From NCBI GenBank assembly GCA_963769935.1, contig CAVYNY010000020.1, positions 384,001-448,000 of the forward strand: a stretch of DNA of 64,000 bases, written 5' to 3'. The stretch comes from an uncultured delta proteobacterium. GTDB taxonomy: Bacteria; Desulfobacterota; Desulfobacteria; Desulfobacterales; JAFDCJ01. Numbering within the stretch: position 1 is the first letter of the stretch; every line of letters starts with the position of its first letter. The notes under the pieces were generated by a model. The model saw only the letters and a program-made list of their open reading frames with translations, was not told the origin of the DNA and did not search any database. Made by a program: the position numbers and the translations under genes. Shown here piece after piece: positions 39,495 to 54,378 of the stretch.

Positions 39495-39523
39495 TTGACA
39501 GCTATAGCGGTTTTCAATATACT
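39495..39523 (+). promoter_or_regulatory. sigma70 promoter
   Basis: TTGACA-N17-TATACT. Confidence 0.65.
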
Positions 39524-39594: not shown

Positions 39595-41334
39595 ATGGCT
39601 GCAACGAATTGGCCCACATCCAACTGGCCGGAAGGCGTTCCCCAGGATGTAACCGATTACGATAAACCGCTGTTTTCTGTTCTGGATGACGCCGCCGGGG
39701 ATTATCCCAACCAGGTTTACACGATATTTAATGACGCCGCCCGAACGTACGCCCAGGTAAAGGATACGGCTGACCGCGTGGCAAGCTTCCTGGCTGCGCG
39801 CGGAATTCAAAAGGGCGACCGGGTCGCTGTTTTTTTGCCGAATCTACCCCATTACCCGGCTATTTTTTTCGGTATTCTCAAAGCCGGTGCGATTTGTGTG
39901 ACCTGCAATCCTTTATATAAATCCAATGAACTCAATTATCAGCTGAAAGATTCCGGCGTCAAAGCCGTCTTTTGCATGGATCATCCCCAATTTTATCCCA
40001 CGACGGTTGCCGCTATCAGGGGAACCACCGTCGAGACCGTGGTTGTTTGCGGCGTTAAATCCTACCTGCCGTTTCTCAAGGGATTCCTGGGCGGACTGCT
40101 GGGCAAAATTCCCAGGGCTGAGAAGTACGAACCCGGCCATCTGTTTTTTGATGATGTTGTGGCCGCTGCTACACTGCCGCCGCCTCCCGTCGACATAAAT
40201 CCAGCCGAAGATCCGGCGCTTATCATTTATACCGGCGGTACCACGGGAGTCCCCAAAGGGGCGGTTCTAACGCACAGCAATTTTGTCTATGATTTGACGG
40301 CCGCCAACGAGTGGATTCGCCTGGTCCATGAACCCGGCGCCAAGGCGGAAAAAGTTCGCCAGGGAGGATATCACACTTATCTCGGTGTTTTGCCCTGGTA
40401 CCATAGTTTCGGCATGACCTGTGCCCTGCTTTCCGCCTGTTCATCCGGCAGCAGGCTGATCTGCGTGCCGGACCCCCGGGCCGGGAATCCGCCGTTCACC
40501 GAAGTTTTAAAAATTGTCCAGAAACATCGTCCGACCGTTATGCCTGCCGTACCCACGATCTTCGTGGCTTTTACAAATCACGCCCATCTCGACCAGTACG
40601 ATCTGAGTTCGCTCATGGGGTGTTTTTCCGGTGGCGCACCTCTGCCGCCTGAAGTCTGCCGCCAGTTTGAAGAAAAAACCGGGGCGGTTATTTTTGAGGG
40701 CTATGGGTTGAGTGAAACCGCACCGATTGCCACAGTCAACCCGACGAATCCGGATCAGCGCAAGATCGGCACCATCGGTTTTCCGATACCCGGCACGGAC
40801 ATCAAGATACTGGACCTTGATACCGGGACCTCGGAACTGCCCCAAGGCGAAGACGGCGAGATTGCCATCTGCGGACCGCAAGTTATGCAAGGCTACTGGA
40901 ACAAGCCGGAAGAAAATGAAAAAGTATTTCGGGAGATTGGCGGGAGACGTTATTTCCTGACCGGTGATATCGGCCATATCGATGAAGACGGATACATCCT
41001 CATCACCGATCGTAAAAAGGACATGGTGCTGGTCGGCGGGTTCAATGTTTATCCGCGGGATGTGGAAGATATTCTTTTCCAACACCCCAAAGTGGGCCTG
41101 GCTGCCGTGGTCGGCGTGCCGAATGCCAAGAGCGGAGAAGTTGTTAAAGCATACATTCAGCTCAAACCGGGCGAAACTGCCAGCGAGCAGGAAATTCTTG
41201 AGTTCTGCAAGGAGAACATGGCCGGATACAAGCGTCCCAAAATCATCGAGTTCAGAAATGAATTGCCGATTTCAAATGTCGGCAAAATCCTGCGCCGGGT
41301 ATTAAGGGACGAGGAGCGTGGTAAAGCCAAATGA
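39595..41334 (+). CDS. Long-chain fatty acid-CoA ligase (FadD-like)
   Basis: YTGGTTGVPKG, EGYGLSET, TGDIG, DRKKD and GKILRR. Confidence 0.93.
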   Translation: MAATNWPTSNWPEGVPQDVTDYDKPLFSVLDDAAGDYPNQVYTIFNDAARTYAQVKDTADRVASFLAARGIQKGDRVAVFLPNLPHYPAIFFGILKAGAICVTCNPLYKSNELNYQLKDSGVKAVFCMDHPQFYPTTVAAIRGTTVETVVVCGVKSYLPFLKGFLGGLLGKIPRAEKYEPGHLFFDDVVAAATLPPPPVDINPAEDPALIIYTGGTTGVPKGAVLTHSNFVYDLTAANEWIRLVHEPGAKAEKVRQGGYHTYLGVLPWYHSFGMTCALLSACSSGSRLICVPDPRAGNPPFTEVLKIVQKHRPTVMPAVPTIFVAFTNHAHLDQYDLSSLMGCFSGGAPLPPEVCRQFEEKTGAVIFEGYGLSETAPIATVNPTNPDQRKIGTIGFPIPGTDIKILDLDTGTSELPQGEDGEIAICGPQVMQGYWNKPEENEKVFREIGGRRYFLTGDIGHIDEDGYILITDRKKDMVLVGGFNVYPRDVEDILFQHPKVGLAAVVGVPNAKSGEVVKAYIQLKPGETASEQEILEFCKENMAGYKRPKIIEFRNELPISNVGKILRRVLRDEERGKAK

Positions 41335-41660
41335 AAAAATGGATCACGGAGCATCCCTATTTTTGTACCAGTATCGTTTTCTTGATTATTATGATTGTCG
41401 GCTGGCAGGTGCTTTTCTGGCGAGCTGAAAATTTCATGTTCTTGCTGCTGCTGTATTTCATCGTCACGCTGGGTATTCGCCTCGATGATATATCCCGGAA
41501 AATGGGCAGCGGCGTGGACCGGCCCGAGGCCGGCCTCAGGGAAAAAGAAAGTATTATCAGTCTGCTGCATGATATCAAAATAACACTGCTGAGGCTGAAT
41601 ACGACGCTCAACAAGCAGTTGCGGGCTGCCGAGAAAGAAAGCGACGATTCCATAAAATAA
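41331..41660 (+). CDS. Small membrane protein, unknown function
   Basis: ATGA overlap with the ligase stop; two TM helices and coiled coil. Confidence 0.7.
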   Translation: MKKWITEHPYFCTSIVFLIIMIVGWQVLFWRAENFMFLLLLYFIVTLGIRLDDISRKMGSGVDRPEAGLREKESIISLLHDIKITLLRLNTTLNKQLRAAEKESDDSIK

Positions 41661-42073: not shown

Positions 42074-42703
42074 ATGCCTTCCCGTCTTGAAAGGGCCCGC
42101 AATGATCCCACTTCAATGAAAGCCCGAATCCTCGCATCTGCCCGCCGGATATTCGGCGAATACGGCTACAACGATACCACGACCCGGATGATCGCCAAGG
42201 ATGTGGGAATCGACATTTCAACCCTCTATTATCACTGGGGCGAAAAACAGGATCTATATGAAGCGGTCATCATGGACATCAGCGAGGAGGTCCAGCAAAA
42301 ATTAAACGAAGTGGAAAAGCACGTCAGCGGCCTGTCGCTGACTAGCCGTCTTGAAATCGCGATCGATATGATGTGTGATTACCTGTTTTCCCATCCGGAG
42401 GTCTCAAATCTGATCCTTTTCGGATATTTCAACAAAACCCGCCACGGCGTCACCCTTGATATCAGAATGTCGAAATATGTGTCCAACATCGCTTTTGCAA
42501 TGGGCCTTTCAACGGATAAGGCGAATGTTTCAATCCAGGCTAAAGCCCGAATTCTGGCGGTTTGGAACACGGTCCTGAATTTCATCTCCGGTGAAAATTT
42601 TTTCAGGCCCATGCTGGATACCAACCGCGACGACTACATTAAGGTCGTTAAGGAGACGTTAAAATTTATCCTGGTACCGGCGTTTACGTCGAAAAACAAA
42701 TAA
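42074..42703 (+). CDS. TetR family regulator
   Basis: ILASARRIF..GY..TTTRMIAKDVGIDISTLYYHW.EK. Confidence 0.93.
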   Translation: MPSRLERARNDPTSMKARILASARRIFGEYGYNDTTTRMIAKDVGIDISTLYYHWGEKQDLYEAVIMDISEEVQQKLNEVEKHVSGLSLTSRLEIAIDMMCDYLFSHPEVSNLILFGYFNKTRHGVTLDIRMSKYVSNIAFAMGLSTDKANVSIQAKARILAVWNTVLNFISGENFFRPMLDTNRDDYIKVVKETLKFILVPAFTSKNK

Positions 42704-42755
42704 GGGAATTGATGGCGCCACAGTTTTGTCGGGAATTCAAAATGGACAAAATTTA

Positions 42756-42844
42756 ATCACGAAAGCACGAAAGGACGAAAGGACGAAAACACGAAAAGGG
42801 GACAGTATAATTTCGTGCTTTCTATATTTCGTGTTTTCGTGATG
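42756..42844. repeat. Family D inverted repeat
   Basis: ATCACGAAAGCACGAAAGGACGAAAGGACGAAAACACGAAA / TTTCGTGCTTTC..TTTCGTGTTTTCGTGAT. Confidence 0.75.
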
Positions 42845-42907
42845 AAAAAAAATTATTAAAATGTAAAAAAAATAAAAATTAAGACTAAAACAAAGGGAGG
42901 AAGCAAT

Positions 42908-45022
42908 ATGGCGCTCAACCTTGATGCGATCGGCAAAAAGATCGGTCCGTTCACCAAGGAATACTCCTGGAAAGACGTCGTCCTGTATGCGCTTGGCGTC
43001 GGGGCGGGGTTTTCCGACCTGGACTATTGCTATGAAAAAAACCTGAAGGTCATCCCCAGCTTCGGCATTACCACGATGTATGATTTTATGCCCCAGCTGG
43101 CAGCCACCAGCAATGTCAACCTGGCCGGCGTCCTGCACGGTGAGCAGGAACTCATTTTTCACAACCCGATTCCTGCGGAAGGGACGCTGACAACAGAAGG
43201 CAGCATCACGCATTGTTATGACAAAGGCCGGGAAAAAGGCGCTCTAGTGGTGGCCGAGTTTGAAACCTGGCACTCCAACGGCAAGAAATTGTTCACCAGC
43301 GTTGTGACAGTTTTCGCGCGTCTGGACGGCGGCTTCGGCGGTGAAAATGCGCCGGCCAAAGAGGTCGCTTTTCCGGACCGGGAGCCGGATTTCGTGGTTG
43401 AAGGCCAACCCGGTGAGGATCAACCGTTGATATACAGACTTTCCGGCGATGTCTTTCAGCTCCATGTCGACCAGGAGTTTGCCGAAATGTCAGGGTTTGA
43501 AAAGCCCATCATGCATGGGTTGTGCACGCATGGATATGCCTGCCGCGCCTTAATTGACAGCTTCATCCCCGGAGAACCTGAGAAAGCCAGGCGGCTCGAC
43601 TGCCGGTTTAAAAGGCCGCTATATCCCGGAATGCCCATCAAGACGGTCATCTGGAAAACCGCGGAGGGAAAAGCGTTGTGGAAGGTGATCAACGCTGCAA
43701 CCAACGAGGTGGTGATCGACAACGGTATCTTTGAATACGGCGACATTCCCAGGGAAAAAATTCGCTTTGACAACCGGGTGGCGATCGTCACCGGCGCCGG
43801 GGCCGGGCTTGGCCGTATCTATGCTCTGGAACTGGCGAAACGCGGCGCCAAGGTCGTGGTCAACGATCTGGGTGGTGCACGGGACGGCTCCGGCGGCGGC
43901 TCACAGGGACCGGCCGATAAGGTCGTCGATGAAATCAAGGCCTTGGGGGGTGCGGCAGTTCCAAACTACGACAGTGTGGCCACGGTCGAGGGCGGTGAAA
44001 ACATAGTAAAAACCGCCTTGGACGCTTTCGGCACGGTGGACATTGTGATCAACAATGCCGGCATCCTGCGTGACAAAAGCTTTTTGAAGATGGAGCCCGA
44101 AAACTGGCAGATCGTGCTGGATGTGCATTTAAACGGCGCCTACCATGTGTCGCGTCCTGCCTTTGACGTCATGAAGGAGAAGGGCTATGGCCGCATTCTA
44201 ATGACGACCTCGGCGGCCGGTCTATACGGCAATTTCGGTCAGACCAACTACACGGCCGCCAAGATGGGCGTGGTCGGTCTGATGAACACCCTCAAGCTGG
44301 AAGGCGAGAAATACAACATCAGGGTCAATACCATCGCACCGGTGGCCGCCTCGCGTCTGACCGGAGATATTTTGCCGCCGGATTTTTTGGACAAATTGAA
44401 ACCGGAGCTGGTGGCGCCCATGGCATTGTACCTGGTTTCGGAGCAATGCCCGGTGAGCGGCAATATTTACAATGTCGGCATGGGATATATCAACCGGGCC
44501 GCGATTGTCACCGGTCCCGGAGCGGTTGTCGGAAACGGCAAGGAAATTCCCGCGCCGGAGCAGCTTCTGGGACAATGGGAAAAGATAACTTCCCTGAAGA
44601 AGGCCAGAGAATATCGGAATGCTACCGAGCAAATCGGAGATTTGCTGACGACATTTTCACAGCCGGCAGCGGCGGCCGCTGAAGCCGGCCGGGGATTTGC
44701 GGCGGCCGCCGAAGTCTTTGATGCCATGCCGGGGGCCTTTGCGGCCGACGCCGGCGCCGGGGTGGATGTTGTGTTCCAGTTCAATCTTTCCGGTGACAAA
44801 GGCGGCGACTGGTTCAGCGTCATCAAGGGCGGACGCTGCCGGGTGGAGGCCGGCACCCATGAAAAACCGGGCTGTACCCTGAAAATGGCGGCTGCGGATT
44901 TTATTGATCTGATGAACGGTAAACTGCCGGCCATGCAGGCCTACACCTCGGGCAAACTAAAAATCGAGGGCGACATCATGAAGTCGCAGCTGATAGAGAA
45001 ACTTTTTAAATTTAGCTTTTGA
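42908..45022 (+). CDS. Fusion: enoyl-CoA hydratase 2 (double MaoC) + (3R)-hydroxyacyl-CoA dehydrogenase SDR + SCP2
   Basis: LYALGVG, LHGEQ, YRLSGDVFQLHVD..PIMHGLCT; TGAGAGLG, NNAGILRD, NYTAAK; C-terminal GKLKIEGD. Confidence 0.9.
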   Translation: MALNLDAIGKKIGPFTKEYSWKDVVLYALGVGAGFSDLDYCYEKNLKVIPSFGITTMYDFMPQLAATSNVNLAGVLHGEQELIFHNPIPAEGTLTTEGSITHCYDKGREKGALVVAEFETWHSNGKKLFTSVVTVFARLDGGFGGENAPAKEVAFPDREPDFVVEGQPGEDQPLIYRLSGDVFQLHVDQEFAEMSGFEKPIMHGLCTHGYACRALIDSFIPGEPEKARRLDCRFKRPLYPGMPIKTVIWKTAEGKALWKVINAATNEVVIDNGIFEYGDIPREKIRFDNRVAIVTGAGAGLGRIYALELAKRGAKVVVNDLGGARDGSGGGSQGPADKVVDEIKALGGAAVPNYDSVATVEGGENIVKTALDAFGTVDIVINNAGILRDKSFLKMEPENWQIVLDVHLNGAYHVSRPAFDVMKEKGYGRILMTTSAAGLYGNFGQTNYTAAKMGVVGLMNTLKLEGEKYNIRVNTIAPVAASRLTGDILPPDFLDKLKPELVAPMALYLVSEQCPVSGNIYNVGMGYINRAAIVTGPGAVVGNGKEIPAPEQLLGQWEKITSLKKAREYRNATEQIGDLLTTFSQPAAAAAEAGRGFAAAAEVFDAMPGAFAADAGAGVDVVFQFNLSGDKGGDWFSVIKGGRCRVEAGTHEKPGCTLKMAAADFIDLMNGKLPAMQAYTSGKLKIEGDIMKSQLIEKLFKFSF

Positions 45023-45095: not shown

Positions 45096-47825
45096 ATGAT
45101 CGGCATTACTTCATACGGCGCATATATTCCACGGTTGAGATTGGACCGGATGGCAATCTTTCAGGCCATGGGCTGGTTTGCACCGGCGATTATGATGGTG
45201 GCCCAGGGCGAGCGATCCATGTGCAACTGGGATGAAGATGCAATTACCATGGCGGTGGCGGCCTCGCGTGACTGCCTGAAGGGGATGGACAAAACGAACC
45301 TGGATGCCCTGTATCTGGCCTCCACCACCCTGCCGTTTGCCGACCGGCAAAATGCCGGAATTGTGTCGGCGGCGCTGAATCTCCGCGAAGAATTTGTCAC
45401 GGCGGATTTTACCGCTTCCCAGAAGGCTGCGACCACGGCGCTGATCACGGCCTTTGAATCCGTCTTAAGCGGTGAGAAGCATAATATCCTGGTGACGGCC
45501 AGTGACCGGCGCGAAACGAAAACCGCCTATTTTTATGAAATGTGGTTCGGCGACGGTGCGGCTGCGCTGATGGTGGGCGATACCGACGTAATTGCCGAGT
45601 ACAAGGGTTCCTACTCGCTGTCCGCTGATTTTGTCGACCACTATCGGGGGGCCGGCCAAAAATACGACTATGTCTGGGAAGAGCGCTGGACCAGGGATGC
45701 GGGTTACGGTACCTTCATTCCCCGGGTAGTCAAGGGTCTTTTTGACAAACTGGGGATTACCATGGATGACGTCGACAAACTGGCGTTTCCCTGCTTTTTC
45801 AAAGGCGACCATGTTAAAATTGCCCGCGGGCTCGGGGCCGGGCCCGACAAACTGGTGGACAACATGCATGAAGTCTGCGGTGAAACCGGTGCGGCGCACT
45901 CCTTTATGATGTTTATTGCAGCCCTGGAACAGGCCAGACCCGGGGACCGGATTCTGATGTGCGGATTCGGGCAGGGGGCCAACGCGGTGTATTTTGAGGT
46001 TACCGAAAATATTGCCCGGCTACCCGGGCGCAATGGCGTTGCCGGAGCTTTGGCCAACAAGAAATCCATCGCCAACTACCACAAATGGCTGAAATTCAGG
46101 GATTTGATAAAAACCGAAATGGGAATCCGGGCCGAAGCGCCCACCCAAACGGCCACCACGGTCCTGTGGCGCAAAAATAAGATGATTTTGGGACTGGTGG
46201 GCGGCAAATGCCGCGAATGCGGCACCCCCCAGTTTCCGAAATCCGATATCTGCGTCAATCCCGGCTGCGGCGCTTTCTACAGCCAGGATGACTATGAATT
46301 CGCCGATGTTCCGGCCAAAGTCAAGACCTTTACCGGCGATATGCTGGCCGTCTCGGTGGATCCACCTGCGATTTACGGCATGGTGCAGTTTGAAGGCGGC
46401 GGCCGCCTGATGGCGGATTTTAGCGACTGCGAACTGGACGACATTAAAGTCGGGCTGCCGGTCAATATGGTATTCAAATGCAAGGGCGTCGACAAGGAGC
46501 GCGGGTTTGTCAACTATTTCTGGAAAGCGGTGCCGGTGCCCGGTGCGGCCGCCGAGGCGGATAAAATCCGCTTTGATGACCGGGTGGCGATTGTCACCGG
46601 CGCCGGCGCAGGACTCGGCCGTGTTTATGCCCTTGAACTGGCGCAGCGCGGAGCCAAAGTTGTCGTCAACGACCTGGGCGGCGCCCGTGACGGCAGCGGC
46701 CAAGGCTCTGCTTCTCCGGCCGATCAGGTGGTGGCGGAAATCAAACAGCGCGGGGGTGAGGCGGTGGCCAATTACGATAATGTGGCCACCCCCCGGGGCG
46801 GTGAAAATATCGTTAAAACCGCCCTGGACGCCTTCGGCCGGTTGGACATCCTGATCAACAACGCCGGTATCCTGCGGGACAAGAGTTTTTCAAAGATGGT
46901 GCCTGAAAACTGGCATGCGGTTATTAACGTCCATTTAAACGGCGCCTTCAACGTAACGCGCCCGGCCATGGCGGCTATGAAGGAAAACGGGTACGGACGC
47001 ATTGTCATGACCACTTCGGCGGCCGGCCTTTACGGCAATTTCGGACAGACCAACTATTCGGCGGCGAAAATGGCCGTGGTCGGACTGATGAACACCTTGA
47101 AGCTGGAAGGTAAAAAATACAACATCAAAGTCAATACCGTCGCTCCCATCGCGGCCTCCAGACTTACCGAAGATGTAATGCCGCCGGATTTATTTGAAAA
47201 GTCCAAACCGGAATTCGTCTCCCCCATGGTATTGTATCTTTGCAGTGAGCGCTGCCGCGAAACCGGCGCGATTTTCAACAGCGGCATGGGTTATTTTAAC
47301 CGGACGGCGGTATTCACCGGGCCAGCAACCCAGCTGGGTGATCTTGAAAATCCGCCCACTCCCGAGCGAATTCACGAGAACTGGAAAAAGATCAATTCCC
47401 TGGAAGGCGCCCGGGAAATGGAAGATGCCAATGCGGCCATCCTGGCGCTCATCATGCCCCCGGACGAAAAAGCAGACCAAGCAGCGGAATCAGCCGACGC
47501 CGGCGGCAGTGTCCAGGCAATTTTCAAAGGCATGGCCGCAAGCTTCAAAGTGGAAGCCGCCGCCGGGATTGACGTGGTGTTCCAGTTCAATATCTCGGGC
47601 GAAGGCGGCGGCGACTGGTTTTGTGTGATCAAAGACGGCAGCTGCAGAATTGAGGTGGGGGCCCACGAAAAGCCGGCCTGTACGATCAATATGGCAGCCG
47701 GGGATTTTCTGGCCATGATGGGCGGCAAGCTGCCGGCCATGCAGGCGTTTACCTCCGGCAAGCTTAAGATCGAAGGGGATGTGATGAAGAGCCAGCTGCT
47801 GGAGAAGTTGTTTAAGATAGGTTAG
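45096..47825 (+). CDS. Fusion: HMG-CoA-synthase-like + DUF35 (Zn-ribbon/OB) + SDR + SCP2
   Basis: GITSYGAYIPRLRL, DEDAITMA, GDGAAA, CGETGAA; CREC..C..PGC and OB fold; TGAGAGLG, NYSAAK; GKLKIEGD. Confidence 0.88.
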   Translation: MIGITSYGAYIPRLRLDRMAIFQAMGWFAPAIMMVAQGERSMCNWDEDAITMAVAASRDCLKGMDKTNLDALYLASTTLPFADRQNAGIVSAALNLREEFVTADFTASQKAATTALITAFESVLSGEKHNILVTASDRRETKTAYFYEMWFGDGAAALMVGDTDVIAEYKGSYSLSADFVDHYRGAGQKYDYVWEERWTRDAGYGTFIPRVVKGLFDKLGITMDDVDKLAFPCFFKGDHVKIARGLGAGPDKLVDNMHEVCGETGAAHSFMMFIAALEQARPGDRILMCGFGQGANAVYFEVTENIARLPGRNGVAGALANKKSIANYHKWLKFRDLIKTEMGIRAEAPTQTATTVLWRKNKMILGLVGGKCRECGTPQFPKSDICVNPGCGAFYSQDDYEFADVPAKVKTFTGDMLAVSVDPPAIYGMVQFEGGGRLMADFSDCELDDIKVGLPVNMVFKCKGVDKERGFVNYFWKAVPVPGAAAEADKIRFDDRVAIVTGAGAGLGRVYALELAQRGAKVVVNDLGGARDGSGQGSASPADQVVAEIKQRGGEAVANYDNVATPRGGENIVKTALDAFGRLDILINNAGILRDKSFSKMVPENWHAVINVHLNGAFNVTRPAMAAMKENGYGRIVMTTSAAGLYGNFGQTNYSAAKMAVVGLMNTLKLEGKKYNIKVNTVAPIAASRLTEDVMPPDLFEKSKPEFVSPMVLYLCSERCRETGAIFNSGMGYFNRTAVFTGPATQLGDLENPPTPERIHENWKKINSLEGAREMEDANAAILALIMPPDEKADQAAESADAGGSVQAIFKGMAASFKVEAAAGIDVVFQFNISGEGGGDWFCVIKDGSCRIEVGAHEKPACTINMAAGDFLAMMGGKLPAMQAFTSGKLKIEGDVMKSQLLEKLFKIG

Positions 47826-47829
47826 AAAA

Positions 47830-47955
47830 AGGTTTAGAGGTTTGGGGCTTCGTCCTTCGGACTACGACCCCACACGCAGGGTTCAACGGTTCTGGGTTCA
47901 GAGGTTAATGGAAAAATCCCAACCCAGAACGGTGAACCTTGAACCTGTGAACGCA
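47830..47955. repeat. GGTTCAG/TGAACC heptad inverted repeat with nested short REP
   Basis: GGCTTCGTCCTTCGGACTACGACCCCACACGCAG inside a GGTTC.. run; TGAACCTTGAACC opposite arm. Confidence 0.65.
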
Positions 47956-48012
47956 TACAGTTAACCTTTTAACAAAAAAATTATTTTATATAATTTTTCC
48001 GGAGGAAAAATT

Positions 48013-49215
48013 ATGGCCACAGGAATAAAAGACAAGGTTGCAATTATTGGTATGGGCTGCACCCGCTTCGGCGAGCGCTGGGATGTGGGCGCCGAAGAAC
48101 TAATGGTGGAAGCCTTCAAGGAGTGCATCGAGGATGCCGGCATCGAAAAGAAGGAAATCGGGGCCGCCTGGCTGGGGACCTGTTTTGACAGCATCAATGT
48201 CGGGCGCAGTGCGCTGCCCCTGTCATTGACGCTGCGGCTGCCGAATATACCGGTAACCCGGGTTGAAAATTTTTGTGCCACCGGCACCGAAGCTTTTCGG
48301 GGCGCCTGCTATGCAGTTGCCTCCGGCGCCTATGACATCGCTCTGGCTATGGGAGTTGAAAAACTAAAAGACACCGGTTACGGCGGTCTGCCCAGCTTCG
48401 TGGGCTCCGACTCGGGCAGCCTGAACTGGCAATGGTTTCCGAACATGACGGCGCCCGGTGCCTTTGCCCAGCTGGCCAGTGCTTACGCCGCCAAATATAA
48501 GATTTCCGATCAGGATTTAAAGCGGGCCATGGCGCATGTGTCGGCCAAGAGCCATGCCAACGGTGTCCTGAATCCCAAAGCCCATTTACGCAAAGCCGTG
48601 ACCGAGGATCAGATTATGGCGGCTCCCATTATCGCTCACCCCCTGGGATTGTTCGATTGCTGCGGTGTCAGCGACGGTGCGGCCTGCGCCATCGTGACTA
48701 CGCCGGAAAAAGCCAAAGCGCTTGGCAAAAAGGATTTTATCAGCGTCAAGGCGCTCCAGCTGGCCTTGAGCTCCGGCGAGGAGATGGGATACAACGATTG
48801 GGATGGCGATCATTTCGTCACCACCAGCAAATGCAGCGTTCAAGCCTACAAGGAAGCCGGGATTGCCGATCCCAAAGAAGAGATCAGCATGATGGAGGTG
48901 CACGATTGTTTTTCCATCACGGAGCTGGTCACCATGGAGGATCTTCATATCTCCGAAAGGGGACAGGCGTATAAGGATGTCATGGACGGCATGTTCGACC
49001 GCAACGGCAAGACCCCATGCCAGGTGGACGGCGGCTTAAAGTGTTTCGGCCATCCCATCGGGGCATCGGGCTTGCGAATGCTGTACGAAATGTATTTGCA
49101 ATTTTACGGCCTGGCCGGGGCGCGCCAGATCGAAGATCCCAGATTCGGACTCACCCATAACCTGGGCGGCTTTCCGGCCATGAATGTTTGCAGCATCTCG
49201 ATCGTCGGCAAATAA
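48013..49215 (+). CDS. SCPx-type thiolase
   Basis: ENFCATG nucleophile, SDGAAC, EVHDCF, GHPIGASG and HNLGG. Confidence 0.92.
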   Translation: MATGIKDKVAIIGMGCTRFGERWDVGAEELMVEAFKECIEDAGIEKKEIGAAWLGTCFDSINVGRSALPLSLTLRLPNIPVTRVENFCATGTEAFRGACYAVASGAYDIALAMGVEKLKDTGYGGLPSFVGSDSGSLNWQWFPNMTAPGAFAQLASAYAAKYKISDQDLKRAMAHVSAKSHANGVLNPKAHLRKAVTEDQIMAAPIIAHPLGLFDCCGVSDGAACAIVTTPEKAKALGKKDFISVKALQLALSSGEEMGYNDWDGDHFVTTSKCSVQAYKEAGIADPKEEISMMEVHDCFSITELVTMEDLHISERGQAYKDVMDGMFDRNGKTPCQVDGGLKCFGHPIGASGLRMLYEMYLQFYGLAGARQIEDPRFGLTHNLGGFPAMNVCSISIVGK

Positions 49216-49450
49216 GGCGAATCGATAGGCATTCGGCGAAGGTGCTCGCGGAGCGTCCCTGCGGGCTTGAGAGCTCAGGCTGAAAAAGCTCACAGCTAGC
49301 TCAAGAAAAGCAATCCACAGACTATCAGCCATCAGCGATGAGCTATCACTGGTTCCTTCTACCTAAGCGCAGCGTTCGCGTGAAACGCTCATCGAGCGAG
49401 CGCTCCTTCAGCGCAGTTCTTACGGTAAAGTATGTAATAAAACGAATTCA

Positions 49451-50593
49451 ATGGAAATACTCAGCTATACCGAGGAGCATAACTTTTTTCGTGAACGGCT
49501 GCGGTCCTTTTTAGCCGAAGAGGTGGCGCCTTTTGCCGACCGGTGGGAAGAAGAAAAGATCATACCCAAAAGTGTCTGGCAAAAAATGGGCCGGGGCGGA
49601 TTCTTGTGCACCGATGTTGCACCGGAATACGGCGGCCTGGGAGGTGATTTCTTATATTCCCTGATTGTGGCCGAGGAGATGACCAGAACCCGGCAAACCG
49701 GATTGGCAACTCCGCTGCACAGCGACATCGTCGTTCCCTATATCAGCGCTTTCGGTTCGGAAGAATTGAAGCATAAATATCTGCCCGGATGTGTCTCCGG
49801 TGACATCGTTACGGCGGTGGCCATGACGGAGCCCGGTGCCGGCAGCGATCTGGCAGGAATAACCACGGCCGCAGTGGAGGAGGGGGCTGAAGTCGTGTTG
49901 AACGGTTCCAAAACGTTTATTTCAAACGGACTCAACGCGGATCTGGTTGTGGTGGCCGCCAGGGATCCGGACGTGGAAAACCCATATGAAGCCTTGTCTT
50001 TGTACCTGGTTGAATCCGGGACCCCCGGTTTTACGCGTGGGCGTCACCTCGAAAAAATGGGTATGTGGAGCCAGGATACGGCCGAGCTTTTTTTCTCTAA
50101 ATGCCGCATCCCCAGAGAAAATCGTCTCGGTGAAAAGGGGATGGGGTTTTTGATGCTGATGGATAAGCTTCAGCAGGAACGGCTGATGTGCGCCATCATG
50201 GCGGTTGCCGGTGCTGAGTTTATTCTGGAGTGGATTACGGATTACTGCAAGCAGACTTCTATTTCGGGCAAGCCCCTTTCCAAATCCCAGGCAGTGCAGT
50301 TTGCGCTGGTGGAAATGACCACGGATGTGAAGCTTGGCCGAACATTTGTTGAAAAACTGATCGCCGATCACATGGAGAAAATGGCAATCATCGTTGAAAC
50401 TTCCATGGCCAAATATTGGACGACGGAGATGCTGAACCGGCTTGCCAACCGTGCCCTCGATCTGTGCGGCGATTTTGCCATGTCGGAAAAATGCCCCATC
50501 GTCAGAGCCTGGCGGGATGCCAGGATCATGACCATCTTTGCCGGGACGAATGAGATTATGAAGAACATTGCGGCCAAGTTTATGGGACTGTGA
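49451..50593 (+). CDS. Acyl-CoA dehydrogenase (LCAD-type)
   Basis: AMTEPGAGSD, NGSKTFISNG, LQQERL and IFAGTNEIMK. Confidence 0.95.
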   Translation: MEILSYTEEHNFFRERLRSFLAEEVAPFADRWEEEKIIPKSVWQKMGRGGFLCTDVAPEYGGLGGDFLYSLIVAEEMTRTRQTGLATPLHSDIVVPYISAFGSEELKHKYLPGCVSGDIVTAVAMTEPGAGSDLAGITTAAVEEGAEVVLNGSKTFISNGLNADLVVVAARDPDVENPYEALSLYLVESGTPGFTRGRHLEKMGMWSQDTAELFFSKCRIPRENRLGEKGMGFLMLMDKLQQERLMCAIMAVAGAEFILEWITDYCKQTSISGKPLSKSQAVQFALVEMTTDVKLGRTFVEKLIADHMEKMAIIVETSMAKYWTTEMLNRLANRALDLCGDFAMSEKCPIVRAWRDARIMTIFAGTNEIMKNIAAKFMGL

Positions 50594-51022
50594 AGACAGA
50601 GGTCGGATGACAGAGGACAGAGAAAAGATGGCAGAGGTCAGAGTCAAGAGTATAGTTGTCGGGTTTCAGCCCGCCCTGGTGCGACATATGGGATTTTTTA
50701 TTTGAGCTGCTGGTGATTCCAATAATGTCTTCCCCTTCAAATTCATACAAGGACAGGTCTGGGCCAGGGGTGTCAGCGAGGAAAAGGCGTTGGAGCAGAG
50801 AGCATAAAGCATAGCGTCGATAGAGAGGACCCGCCGCCGCCCTCCGGGCTATGGCGCGGCAAGCAGAGAACATATTAGAAACTATAGTTATTGGTTATTG
50901 GTTTGCAAATCAACTCAATCAATCAACAACGATCTCAACGATCATAACGATCTCAACCTATCAACTATGAGCTATAAACTATGAGCTATCAACTATGAAC
51001 CATGAACCATGAACTATCAACA
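50594..51022. repeat. Composite periodic repeats related to family A
   Basis: GACAGAG run, GCATAGCG, tandem AACGATCTC 9-mers and AACTATG/AGCTATC heptads. Confidence 0.7.
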
Positions 51023-51098: not shown

Positions 51099-52601
51099 AT
51101 GGACAAATACGACGTCGTCGTCATCGGGGCCGGCAATGGCGGGCTTACCGCGGCAGCCAAACTGGCGCAGGCAGGCCTGAATGTTTTGCTGCTGGAGCGG
51201 CACAATATTCCCGGCGGTGCTGCCACAAGTTTTTGCCGCGGGCGGTTTGAGTTCGAGGTGGCCCTGCACCAGCTGAGCGGTCTGGGTACACCGGAAAAGC
51301 CCGGTCTCCTGCGGCTGCAGCTGGATAAGCTCGGGGTGATGGATGATCTCGAATTTGTCGAGATTTCCGATCTCTACCATGTGGCCACGGCCGATGGGTT
51401 TCGCATCACGCTCAAAACGAATCGTGATGAAACCATTGCGGTGCTCAAGGACAAGTTCCCCCATCAAAAAGACGCCATCGGGCGTTATTTTGACTTGATG
51501 GCCCGTTATGCCAACGACATGATCGGCGCCTTCATCTTCAGAGATCCGGAGCCGTCGCGCCAGAAATATCCCAATCTCTACCAATTCGCTCTGCGAAATT
51601 CCAAAGAAATCCTGGATGAATATTTTTCCGATCCGCTGCTAAAAGCCGTGCTTTCAGTGTACTGGGGCTATATCGGTGTGCCGCCGACCCGTCTGGCGTT
51701 TGCTTATCTATGTATGGTTTTATTTCAGTATATGGAGTTTAAACCGTATCATGTAAAAGGCGGTTCCCAGGCATTGTCGAATGCCATTTTGAACAAATTC
51801 GTTTTAAACGGAGGAACCGTGCGCTTCAATTGCGGCGCCCAAAAGATCATCGTCCGGGACGGCCGGATAACAGGGGTGATTACCGATGATGATGACGAGA
51901 TTGCAGCCCAATATGTGGTTTCCAATGTATCGCCGGTCGCCGTCTATACCCATCTTATGGATCGCGAGCAGGTGCCGCAGGATGCGCTGGCCGAAATGAA
52001 AAGCCGCAATCTGAGCACTTCCGCTTTTACCATGTTTATCGGATTTGATTGTGAACCCGATCGGCTGGGCATTCAGGAATCCACCAATTTCCTGATGAGC
52101 TCCACGGATATTTCGGACGGTCTGCTGGACCGGATGAACCGGCTGGACATCACAGATGAGCTTTTAGTGCTCAGCTGCTACGATGTCACCGACCCTGAAT
52201 TTTCCCCTCCCGGAACCTGCCAGGCCAATGTCGTGACGTTAAAATACGGAGAGCCCTGGCTGCGGGTGCCGCCGCGGCAGTATCATGATGTGAAATTCCG
52301 CTGTGCGGACGCCATGCTGAAGCGGATTTACGAAATCTATCCGGAAGCCAAAAACCACATCGAGGAGATCGAAGTCGCAACCCCGCTGACCCACATGCGC
52401 TATCTCGGCCATCCCCTGGGCGCCATATACGGTTATGAAATGCTGACCAAGGATTCCCTTTTTTTCCAGCCGGGCTGCTACTCGCCGATTCAGGGTTTGT
52501 TTTTTGCGGGGGGATGGGCCGGCGACAATGGGTTTGAGCCGACCCTGCGATCGGGGATATCGGCAGCGAAGTCCATTATCAGGCGACGTGGGGCGGGATA
52601 A
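51099..52601 (+). CDS. Phytoene desaturase/retinol saturase-like FAD oxidoreductase
   Basis: IGAGNGGL, ERHNIPGG, KGGSQALS, ATPLT..Y..GAIYG and GLFFAG. Confidence 0.85.
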   Translation: MDKYDVVVIGAGNGGLTAAAKLAQAGLNVLLLERHNIPGGAATSFCRGRFEFEVALHQLSGLGTPEKPGLLRLQLDKLGVMDDLEFVEISDLYHVATADGFRITLKTNRDETIAVLKDKFPHQKDAIGRYFDLMARYANDMIGAFIFRDPEPSRQKYPNLYQFALRNSKEILDEYFSDPLLKAVLSVYWGYIGVPPTRLAFAYLCMVLFQYMEFKPYHVKGGSQALSNAILNKFVLNGGTVRFNCGAQKIIVRDGRITGVITDDDDEIAAQYVVSNVSPVAVYTHLMDREQVPQDALAEMKSRNLSTSAFTMFIGFDCEPDRLGIQESTNFLMSSTDISDGLLDRMNRLDITDELLVLSCYDVTDPEFSPPGTCQANVVTLKYGEPWLRVPPRQYHDVKFRCADAMLKRIYEIYPEAKNHIEEIEVATPLTHMRYLGHPLGAIYGYEMLTKDSLFFQPGCYSPIQGLFFAGGWAGDNGFEPTLRSGISAAKSIIRRRGAG

Positions 52602-52726: not shown

Positions 52727-52798
52727 GTGGGAGCGGTTTTCAACCGTGATCAACTCGGTCGAGCCAGCATCAAAATCGTGGTTGAAAACCACTCCCAC
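52727..52798. repeat. REPIN-like pair of GTGG-type REPs nested in a family B element (about 52633-52900)
   Basis: GTGGGAGCGGTTTTCAACCGTGAT ... ATCGTGGTTGAAAACCACTCCCAC. Confidence 0.75.
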
Positions 52799-52973: not shown

Positions 52974-54132
52974 ATGCGAAAAGGCATCTGGCAGGAGTTC
53001 GACGGGTACCAGGATATTGTCGAGGAAATCAGGGCAAGCCGGAAGCTGGGCGGAACGGCCGCCGCGGCCGTGGTTGCCGCCGAGGAGTACATCCGGCTGC
53101 TGCATCCCGCGCGCCTGCAGCTGCGGGTCGGCGATATTATTGAGGAAACACCGACCGCCAAAACGCTGCGTCTGATTTCCAAGGACAACTACCTGCCGCC
53201 TTTTCTGGCCGGCCAGTACATTGCCCTTTTTCTTGAAGTCGGCGGCATTCGCACCAGCCGTCCTTACAGCATATCGTCGCCGCCCAATCAGGTCGGATTT
53301 TATGATATTACGATTCGCCGGGTTGAGAACGGACTGGTTTCCAGCTATCTGCTCGACGGAATAAAGCGCGGTGATTCGCTGGTCGGTTCTGGGCCGGCCG
53401 GCAGCTTCTATTTCAATTCCCTCATTCACAAAACGACAATGGTATGCCTTGCCGGCGGCAGCGGAATTACGCCTTTCATGAGTATGATCCGGGAGATCGT
53501 CGAGTGCGGATTGGACCGTAGCGTGTATCTTTTCTACGGCAACAAGACGGCCGATGATATTATTTTCGCCGGCGAACTCAGCCGCATTGCAGAAAGATTC
53601 CAAAATATTCATTACATACCGGTCATCGAGGAGGCGGCCGAAGGCTATGCCGGCGCCTGCGGATTCATCACCCGCGATCTGCTGCGCGAAGCACTGGTTA
53701 ACATTGAAGACAAATCCTTCTTTATCTGCGGACCTCAAGGCCTCTACGATTTTTGTCTGCCCCAGGTGGAAGATCTCGGGGTGCCGAGACGCAAAATAAA
53801 ACAGGAGATGTACGGTGCACCGTCCAGCATCTGGGAGTATCCCGGCTGGCCGGCGGAGATCGGAAAAGAGGATGCCTTTTCGGTAAACGTCAGAAATGGA
53901 AAGCAGCTGAAGGCCAAAGCCGGCGAAACCCTGCTGACGGCCTTGGAGAAAAATGAGGTCCGGGTCCCCTCATTGTGCCGGTCCGGCGAATGCAGCATGT
54001 GCCGGGTGAAGATCCTGTCCGGTAAAGTGTATCAGCCCCCGGGGGTTCCCGTTCGAAAGTCCGACCGGCAGTTCGGCTATGTGCATGCGTGCATGTCTTA
54101 TCCGATCAGCCGATCTTGAAATTTTGATTTAG
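52974..54132 (+). CDS. FNR-type FAD/NAD(P) reductase with C-terminal 2Fe-2S (probable +1 frameshift in the last codons)
   Basis: RPYSISS, AGGSGITP, CGP, CRSGECSMC..HAC; removing one C near 54111 gives the typical ending PISDLEILI* at 54132. Confidence 0.88.
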
Positions 54133-54370
54133 GAAAAAGGTGAAATTAAAAAGGACAAAGGATAAAGGAAAAAGGTGAAAGGTGTAAGGTGCAAGGTGGA
54201 GTTTAGACGGCTGAAAACTATAGATAGAGGCGAAAGGCGAACGGCGCAAGATTCAACCTTGGAGTGAAAGGTGTTTAATCCAATGTCCCGGTCTGTGAAT
54301 TCTTCATGCTCGGTTTGAAATTCAATTACCGTCATACACCTTTAACCTTTTGCCTTTATCCTTATTCCTA
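54133..54370. repeat. AAAGG/CCTTT heptad inverted repeat related to family A
   Basis: AAAGGACAAAGGATAAAGGAAAAAGG ... CCTTTAACCTTTTGCCTTTATCC. Confidence 0.65.
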
Positions 54371-54378
54371 TATACGAG

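Follow-up and report, generated by a model that had tools for sequence, protein, structure and literature searches.

A pseudo-HMG-CoA synthase/DUF35 protein fused to an MFE-2-type dehydrogenase and SCP2: a candidate thiolase scaffold for β-oxidation in uncultured Desulfobacterales

Architecture of the four-domain fusion protein

We analysed a 64,000-nucleotide stretch of DNA (the window) from an uncultured Desulfobacterales bacterium (contig CAVYNY010000020.1, positions 384,001 to 448,000). On its forward strand, a single stop-free open reading frame (ORF; 45096..47825) encodes a 909-aa protein that unites a pseudo-HMG-CoA synthase (pseudo-HMGS), a DUF35 domain, a short-chain dehydrogenase/reductase (SDR) of the type 2 multifunctional enzyme (MFE-2) class and an SCP2 domain. 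The next gene encodes a thiolase. An earlier note on this DNA had read the same domain order, and both the uninterrupted frame and the Pfam matches agree with it: ACP_syn_III and ACP_syn_III_C at residues 104-164 and 217-296, zf-ChsH2 at 367-393, OB_ChsH2_C at 419-461, adh_short at 496-685 and SCP2 at 821-907. The HMGS/PhlA-fold domain, which lacks the Glu-Cys-His-Asn (E-C-H-N) residues, occupies 45096..46115 and is followed by the DUF35 zinc ribbon (C372, C375, C386 and C391) with its OB fold, recognised by Pfam and conserved residues (46122..46541). The SDR belongs to the (3R)-hydroxyacyl-CoA dehydrogenase type of peroxisomal MFE-2 (Asp526, His613, Ser641, Tyr654 and Lys658; 46572..47465), and the SCP2 lipid-binding domain lies behind a linker that is disordered in the structure model (residues 792-803; 47508..47822). 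The AlphaFold monomer model has a predicted local distance difference test score (pLDDT) of 87.5 and a predicted template modelling score of 0.63, and leaves the packing of the SDR on the scaffold undecided.

The search for relatives returned 1304 matches among 7996 candidates; residue counts given below for listed relatives use the 120 that were listed. All 120 clusters are 881-911 aa long and share 77-96% identity with the fusion across 97-100% of its length. Each domain junction is bridged by contigs from public runs (X2 records 12/13, X6 record 28 and X4 record 21), while the whole fusion stretch is spanned by no single one of them. The full-length relatives and the independent contigs across the junctions rule out an assembly chimera, which the earlier note had named as a possible objection. 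The nearest named relatives are metagenome-assembled genomes (MAGs) of Desulfobacterales, one labelled Desulfosarcina, and cluster look-ups for a cultured carrier named MAGs alone. Among the matches listed, frames of more than 900 aa group at at least 64% identity.

The C-terminal part varies among relatives. SCP2 is missing from four complete proteins, each about 800 aa long (L009, L015, L046 and L054), and the same scaffold was also seen with SCP2 only, with SCP2-SCP2 or with an SDR and no SCP2 (L053:7962-9806; P0125; P0131; and the four just named). P0131 is a distant scaffold, 48% identical, with a similar SDR fusion. These varied tails suggest that the C-terminus of DUF35 is a docking point for swappable domains. 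Two further scaffolds carry unannotated extensions (L084:7059-9110; L085:7607-9388). The two-domain form prevails in a broad set of 150 representatives, 116 of which are 450-499 aa long. Scaffold matches at an E-value of 0.001 occur in 117 of 301 genomes of the phylum, a count that includes weak matches and maybe other thiolase-fold proteins. Synteny was counted in the best 80 of 451 GTDB loci, which hold 82 scaffold ORFs: 61 four-domain proteins, 12 in which an SDR but no SCP2 was seen (6 of these run off their contig), 8 two-domain proteins and one with SCP2 only.

The HMGS-like domain lacks the catalytic residues

The best matches of the first 340 residues among solved structures are PhlA-type proteins and archaeal HMG-CoA synthase (E-values 2e-36 to 9e-29), and the modelled N-terminal domain superposes on 6esq_I and 5mg5_A with a TM-score of about 0.9. 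We aligned it to archaeal HMG-CoA synthase (6esq_I) and to 5m3k_A. Gln109 (codon 45420-45422) occupies the position of the nucleophilic Cys, in line with the Cys-to-Gln replacement that had been read from the sequence before, and PhlA has Gly there. Thr78 stands at the position of the catalytic Glu, Pro232 at that of the His and Glu263 at that of the Asn. The listed relatives share this pattern almost without exception (Thr, Pro and Glu in 120/120; Gln in 119, Leu in one). After removal of 27 sequences shorter than 455 aa, 123 members of the broad set could be scored: Cys, Glu and His are missing from their respective sites throughout, so the loss of these residues is family-wide, and the Asn is kept in 37. 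Consistently, the protein falls below the cut-offs of the HMG-CoA synthase models TIGR00748 (139 bits against 353) and PRK04262 (200 against 244). It thus lacks the E-C-H-N tetrad that marks an active HMG-CoA synthase.

The fused SDR is of the MFE-2 type

The SDR of the fusion matches the human MFE-2 domain with an E-value of 3e-99, compared with 2e-40 for the best FabG, and MFE-2-type structures with E-values of 1e-98 to 1e-132; the top four matches of its structure model are MFE-2 dehydrogenases. It shares with this type the kinship of the C-terminal subdomain, the Ser-Tyr-Lys triad with a His, and the Asp after strand β2. The four zinc cysteines and the SDR Asp, His, Ser, Tyr and Lys are each present in 120/120 listed relatives, so that the SDR is indeed intact, as it had appeared in the earlier reading. 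The invariant Asp526 is common to human MFE-2, and an Asp after β2 indicates NAD preference in SDRs. Judged by kinship, the enzyme is predicted to use NAD+ and to be (R)-stereospecific. The linker between DUF35 and SDR has exactly 12 residues in 98 of the 102 cases in which it was located, out of 123 examined.

A second SDR-SCP2 module lies in the gene that ends 73 bp upstream, which encodes a 704-aa fusion of hydratase-2 (double hot-dog fold, Asp181/His186), another MFE-2-type SDR and SCP2 (42908..45022, forward strand). The two modules are paralogous, with 78% DNA identity over 300 nt. In the window, the two SDRs are 78% identical in the Rossmann core and 40% in the C-terminal subdomain, which in human MFE-2 contributes to the dimer contact besides shaping the substrate groove (PMC3538638). 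Between the two SDR groups, the majority residues coincide at 24 of 26 positions of the helix with the catalytic Tyr and Lys, and at 33 of 70 positions of the subdomain. Both are catalytically intact, in 120/120 relatives of the fusion and 60/60 of the upstream gene. The divergence of the subdomain makes different chain preferences of the two SDRs possible; yeast MFE-2 reportedly has two SDR copies with different chain preferences. For a mixed dimer of the two SDRs, the same divergence cuts both ways.

A quick tree of the SDRs from 53 loci and the window separates two old lineages, with values of only 85 and 81 in the Shimodaira-Hasegawa-like approximate likelihood ratio test, and identity is 71% within a locus and 69% across loci. 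We considered a recent tandem duplication of SDR-SCP2 and rejected it on the identity of third codon positions (53%) and on the two parallel clades of 46 rows each. The paralogues group together in L032, L034, L040 (a long-branch join) and L056, which suggests occasional homogenisation.

The thiolase is a conserved neighbour of the scaffold

The SCP2-type thiolase (48013..49215, forward strand) matches NCBIfam PRK06157 with 697 bits against a cut-off of 403. Its Cys88, HDCF and GHPIG, which the earlier note had pointed out, are retained in 59/59 locus homologues. Among the scaffolds that could be scored, 58 of 61 with an SDR and all 8 without one have a thiolase as their next gene. We furthermore picked 20 loci by hand, comprising five long frames and fifteen two-domain relatives, and a thiolase adjoins the scaffold in all of them (two as fragments). 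Natural scaffold-thiolase fusions were also considered; the three candidate frames of 878-956 aa resolved into scaffolds of 469-480 aa and a separate thiolase.

This synteny, together with the precedent of a Pseudomonas fluorescens complex, PfACAT/HMGS-DUF35 (Liao et al., Nat Commun 2026, PMC12960953), makes it very probable that the scaffold binds the adjacent thiolase. The non-catalytic scaffold, thiolase partner and 3-hydroxyacyl-CoA dehydrogenase proposed in the earlier note are supported by the residue loss, the synteny, the closest structures and the type of the two-domain homologue (PMC12960953).

Genes of a predicted peroxisome-style cycle surround the fusion

The earlier note had taken the fusion and the thiolase as the unit. 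Both belong to it, but the upstream hydratase-2/SDR/SCP2 gene and a downstream acyl-CoA dehydrogenase gene had been overlooked. The hydratase domain is nearest to a mycobacterial MaoC protein and to MFE-2 hydratase-2, and its Asp and His are present in 60/60 locus homologues. Within its motif (43448-43465), Phe is found in 59 of 60 sequences and mostly Gln follows, in place of the Asn-Pro of MFE-2. The hydratase-SDR gene precedes 63 of 64 SDR-bearing scaffolds. Nine SDR-less scaffolds could be scored: the gene is absent in seven, a contig end truncates the eighth, and in the ninth a stand-alone SDR takes its place.

Downstream of the thiolase, 49451..50593 (forward strand) encodes an LCAD-like acyl-CoA dehydrogenase, and such a gene follows the thiolase in 47 of 49 loci. 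The FAD motifs of acyl-CoA dehydrogenases have assigned roles, and those of the partner side are degenerate here, so that the protein is likely the α subunit of a heteromer. In ten loci (e.g. L013:12300-13448 and L024:12056-13204), the gene is accompanied in tandem by a paralogue whose motif pattern is reciprocal. Read with these generally assigned roles, the window dehydrogenase and the ten tandem partners would match the pattern of ChsE4-ChsE5. In this α2β2 type, one subunit carries the catalytic Glu and the flavin-ring motifs and the other the ADP-side motifs (PMC11153573). The motif loss is found in Desulfobacterales-type loci, and more distant loci have complete motifs, which suggests an independent origin of the heteromeric enzyme. 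The best partner candidate in the same genome (G000 C11:369411-370562) is unlinked, 51-63% identical, and looks complete by itself.

A long-chain acyl-CoA ligase is encoded upstream (39595..41334, forward strand), as it is in some of the related loci. A complete peroxisome-style cycle would be made up by the ligase, the dehydrogenase, hydratase-2, the (3R)-type dehydrogenase and the SCP2-type thiolase. The genome of the window, 96.7% complete, gave no match to HMG-CoA reductase, and we therefore rejected a mevalonate role. It contains DXP reductoisomerase and 13 matches to the classical 3HCDH family. Together, these points argue for a specialised parallel route that is neither the mevalonate pathway nor the sole β-oxidation of the cell.

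Unfused relatives and the edc oestrogen cluster

A separate SDR gene lies near the scaffold in 5 of the 20 picked loci (63-67% identical to the fusion SDR), and a more distant one in another 2 (40-42%). L090 and L096 show the order CoA-transferase, scaffold, thiolase, split MaoC pair, SDR and a CrtI-like gene, and L097 is similar. The unfused locus L100 encodes after its thiolase an 870-aa protein in which about 600 residues blank in Pfam precede an SDR (L100:11533-14145). Among 34 plasmid records, we opened six loci. Five of them have, no more than 6 kb away, an SDR (37-46% identical) that shares the VxND motif, and in the Sphingomonas and Variovorax plasmids SDR, MaoC, scaffold and thiolase are consecutive.

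The Novosphingobium ES2-1 plasmid locus is the edc oestrogen-degradation cluster, whose TetR regulator has been named as an EdcR homologue (PMC8700777). Its scaffold (L101:8992-10395) is a two-domain protein, 32-34% identical, with Leu at the Cys site and the four zinc cysteines, and sits between an SDR and an HDCF thiolase at the position of the edc 'HMG-CoA synthase'. The gene at that position in Caenibius (Novosphingobium) tardaugens is induced by oestrone (PMC8700777). For this gene, EGO55_13555, an anabolic HMG-CoA synthase was said in 2020 to make no sense in such a place, and it was left unassigned (PMC7793797); its link to the scaffold family is through synteny with the ES2-1 plasmid. 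The edc operon OpA has the order acyl-CoA dehydrogenase, 3-hydroxyacyl-CoA dehydrogenase, 'HMG-CoA synthase' and thiolase (PMC7793797, PMC8700777); this resembles the window, but the operon is unfused and belongs to an aerobic steroid context.

Comparison with known systems

The closest characterised type is the PfACAT complex, which cleaves acetoacetyl-CoA and makes neither HMG-CoA nor acetoacetyl-CoA; it represents about 1,000 bacterial loci without a secondary-metabolite context, and its physiological role is unassigned (PMC12960953). Like it, the window encodes an HMGS-DUF35 fusion lacking E-C-H-N beside a thiolase that keeps Cys, HDxF and GHx. Unlike it, the window protein adds an MFE-2-type SDR and SCP2, and hydratase-2, a further SDR, an acyl-CoA dehydrogenase and a ligase come from the same operon; the term 'SDR' finds no match in the main text of PMC12960953. 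The claim of novelty in the earlier note thus stands in part. The four-domain protein and its operon are undescribed in the literature searched, outside of which most subscription journals lie, but a dead HMGS-DUF35 protein with an HDxF thiolase was assayed in 2026 (PMC12960953). Fusions of DUF35 to each of four domain types, thiolase-fold, SDR, SCP2 and hot-dog, had been listed in 2010 (PMC2954200). The new element is the MFE-2-type dehydrogenase with SCP2 appended to the known core of dead HMGS-DUF35 and thiolase.

The archaeal thiolase/HMG-CoA synthase/DUF35 complex (6ESQ), PhlABC (5M3K) and MucABC (9VBO) have the same three folds, but as separate chains and with no dehydrogenase. Archaeal HMGS is active and has its CoA site in common with the thiolase, in contrast to the window domain without catalytic residues. 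PhlC and MucB, which lack HDxF, are Friedel-Crafts acylases; the HDCF motif of the window thiolase, intact in 59/59, sets it apart from these.

In its (3R)-type SDR, hydratase-2, SCP2 and HDCF thiolase, the system resembles peroxisomal MFE-2 (HSD17B4, yeast Fox2) with SCPx thiolase, and mycobacterial ChsH3/ChsB1, a bacterial MFE-2-like, NAD+-using catabolic pair (PMC8204306). Candida MFE-2 domain 2et6 likewise has two SDR copies. Unlike MFE-2 and SCPx, the domains are re-partitioned on two chains, hydratase-SDR-SCP2 and scaffold-SDR-SCP2; as a whole protein the fusion is no MFE-2, having no hydratase, and the upstream gene has the order hydratase-SDR-SCP2. Unlike SCPx, the thiolase itself lacks SCP2, and it is paired with a pseudo-HMGS-DUF35. 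Finally, in the Sulfolobus acidocaldarius KT/DUF35/ACR/MaoC complex, an (R)-specific SDR likewise joins a thiolase/DUF35 pair together with a MaoC hydratase, but that complex is non-covalent, has no HMGS-fold subunit, is NADPH-specific and works synthetically (bioRxiv 2024.07.05.601840).

Proposed function and alternatives

We consider it likely that the 909-aa protein is a structural partner of the adjacent thiolase in a predicted (R)-specific, NAD-linked β-oxidation of long, bulky or branched acyl-CoAs. In such a route, the ligase would activate the acid, the LCAD-like dehydrogenase would yield the enoyl-CoA and the hydratase-2 of the upstream gene would convert this to (3R)-hydroxyacyl-CoA. 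Both SDRs would then oxidise the latter with NAD+, and the HDCF thiolase would cleave the product. The dead HMGS and DUF35 would build a thiolase-HMGS-DUF35 particle and help to shape the CoA chamber, while the 12-residue tether would keep the SDR in its proximity. We hold the oxidative direction with good confidence; it is favoured by the Asp after β2, the precedent of NAD+-using ChsB1, the LCAD-like gene and the edc context. For a bulky or branched substrate, the odds appear even. SCPx prefers 2-methyl-branched chains. LCAD-type pockets accept branched and sterol chains (PMC11153573), and the three SCP2-related features and the CrtI-like accessory described below point to hydrophobic, perhaps isoprenoid chains. 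A kinetic coupling of dehydrogenase and thiolase is a tentative proposal.

Within this MFE-2/SCPx-like operon, the scaffold is covalently joined to the predicted dehydrogenase of the preceding β-oxidation step, the same dehydrogenase that some unfused relatives keep nearby. A degradative thiolase scaffold would offer one testable answer to two puzzles, the approximately 1,000 ACAT/HMGS-DUF35 loci and the edc 'HMG-CoA synthase', and its value would lie in a pathway for an orphan class of complexes. It would also imply a peroxisome-type route of lipid degradation common in sediment Desulfobacterales.

Several observations weigh against this proposal. A single residue, interpreted by a general rule, is the basis for the cofactor preference. 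No comparable SDR (at least 40% identity) was found within the stretches fetched for 13 of the 20 picked loci, and no VxND-type SDR was seen in the sixth plasmid locus (Sphingobium), so that the SDR is not an obligatory neighbour of the scaffold. The GTDB loci belong mostly to one clade, and the synteny counts thus reflect conservation and not independent origins. The kinship with the PfACAT type is read from architecture and motifs, and the thiolysis by that two-domain complex is possibly residual according to its authors (PMC12960953). Moreover, the same four ingredients, thiolase, DUF35, SDR and MaoC, work synthetically in Sulfolobus (bioRxiv 2024.07.05.601840).

An extension of the proposed route, which we regard as doubtful, is that the two near-identical SDR cores pair across chains and clip the hydratase onto the pseudo-HMGS/DUF35/thiolase particle. 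Hydratase, dehydrogenase and thiolase would then form one machine that bears several SCP2 carriers. Such a machine would be an (R)-specific analogue, in bacteria, of the trifunctional β-oxidation enzyme on a dead mevalonate-pathway scaffold, serving branched or isoprenoid lipids in anoxic sediments. If so, many of the roughly 1,000 orphan loci, including the edc 'HMG-CoA synthase', would be degradative thiolase scaffolds.

The SDR might instead occupy a defined position on the thiolase-DUF35 particle and pass 3-oxoacyl-CoA on without release, a strong form of the direct passage proposed in the earlier note. The constant linker, partly helical in the model (pLDDT 76), fits such direct channelling, and the Sulfolobus SDR binds its thiolase/DUF35 pair non-covalently with hardly detectable intermediates (bioRxiv 2024.07.05.601840). 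However, the known archaeal channel is a CoA site common to the active sites of HMGS and thiolase (PMC12960953, PMC12329534), the linker has 26 residues in P0131, and the flexible linkers of another DUF35-tethered pair were deemed incompatible with direct channelling (PMC12329534). As the HMGS residues are lost here and the SDR hangs on the C-terminus of DUF35, proximity alone follows, and we regard channelling as unlikely.

Operation in the synthetic direction, with CoA-linked chain elongation in which the SDR pulls an endergonic condensation, would agree with the Sulfolobus complex of the same four enzyme types, including an (R)-type SDR and MaoC (bioRxiv 2024.07.05.601840), and with the established rationale of DUF35 complexes. 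Yet the Sulfolobus reductase is NADPH-specific and FabG-like, and the window SDR is MFE-2-like with an invariant Asp526. The operon holds an LCAD-like dehydrogenase and a ligase, no enoyl-CoA reductase was identified among the annotated neighbours (without a genome-wide search for one), the P. fluorescens complex of the two-domain type showed no condensation of acetyl-CoA (PMC12960953), and a relative is located in an oestrogen-induced catabolic operon. Elongation therefore seems quite improbable.

There is very little to favour a re-wired HMGS-like domain with Cys233 and Glu263 as a new catalytic or acyl-holding site. These residues, adjoining the old His and at the old Asn, are kept in 120/120 listed relatives and 81 of 82 locus ORFs, but within that locus set 98 of the domain's 321 columns are just as invariant, which renders their invariance unremarkable. 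A substitute active site of the whole family was rejected, as Cys233 occurs in only 12 and Glu263 in only 5 of the 123 broad representatives. It is extremely unlikely that the SDR-SCP2 tail only rides along, as a copy taken from the neighbouring gene, and is functionally uncoupled from the thiolase: the paralogy of the two modules and the four relatives without SCP2 would allow it, but every catalytic residue is kept in both SDRs, these form two old parallel lineages, and the distant scaffold P0131 bears a similar SDR fusion.

Accessory genes and intergenic features

Further genes of the cluster lie on the same strand. A TetR-family regulator stands at its head (42074..42703; Pfam) and precedes in 41 of 54 loci. 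Downstream, a CrtI/CrtISO-like flavoprotein (51099..52601; in 15 of 39 loci) and, beside it, an FAD/NAD 2Fe-2S reductase (52974..54119) appear to be optional accessories and are possibly an auxiliary double-bond reductase or isomerase. The pair accompanies fused and unfused operons alike, and the CrtI-like gene is found in the unfused loci L090, L096 and L097. A 109-aa hydrophobic ORF without Pfam match (41331-41660) overlaps the ligase stop and follows the ligase in about 12 related loci.

In close strains, contigs from RNA libraries give good coverage of 39.7-49.2 kb and thin coverage beyond 49.2 kb; as such contigs cannot show transcription or operon limits, they were not used. A scan for promoters and terminators gave counts within about two standard deviations of shuffled sequences. 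Between the operon genes we observed imperfect inverted repeats and tandem units of 7 or 14 nt (42752-42847, 52727-52798, 54147-54374, 49321-49348 and 50964-51019), and spikes of read depth at some of them suggest that these are dispersed genome repeats. A sigma-70 match of 11 out of 12 positions lies at 39495-39523, 72 bp ahead of the acyl-CoA ligase gene.

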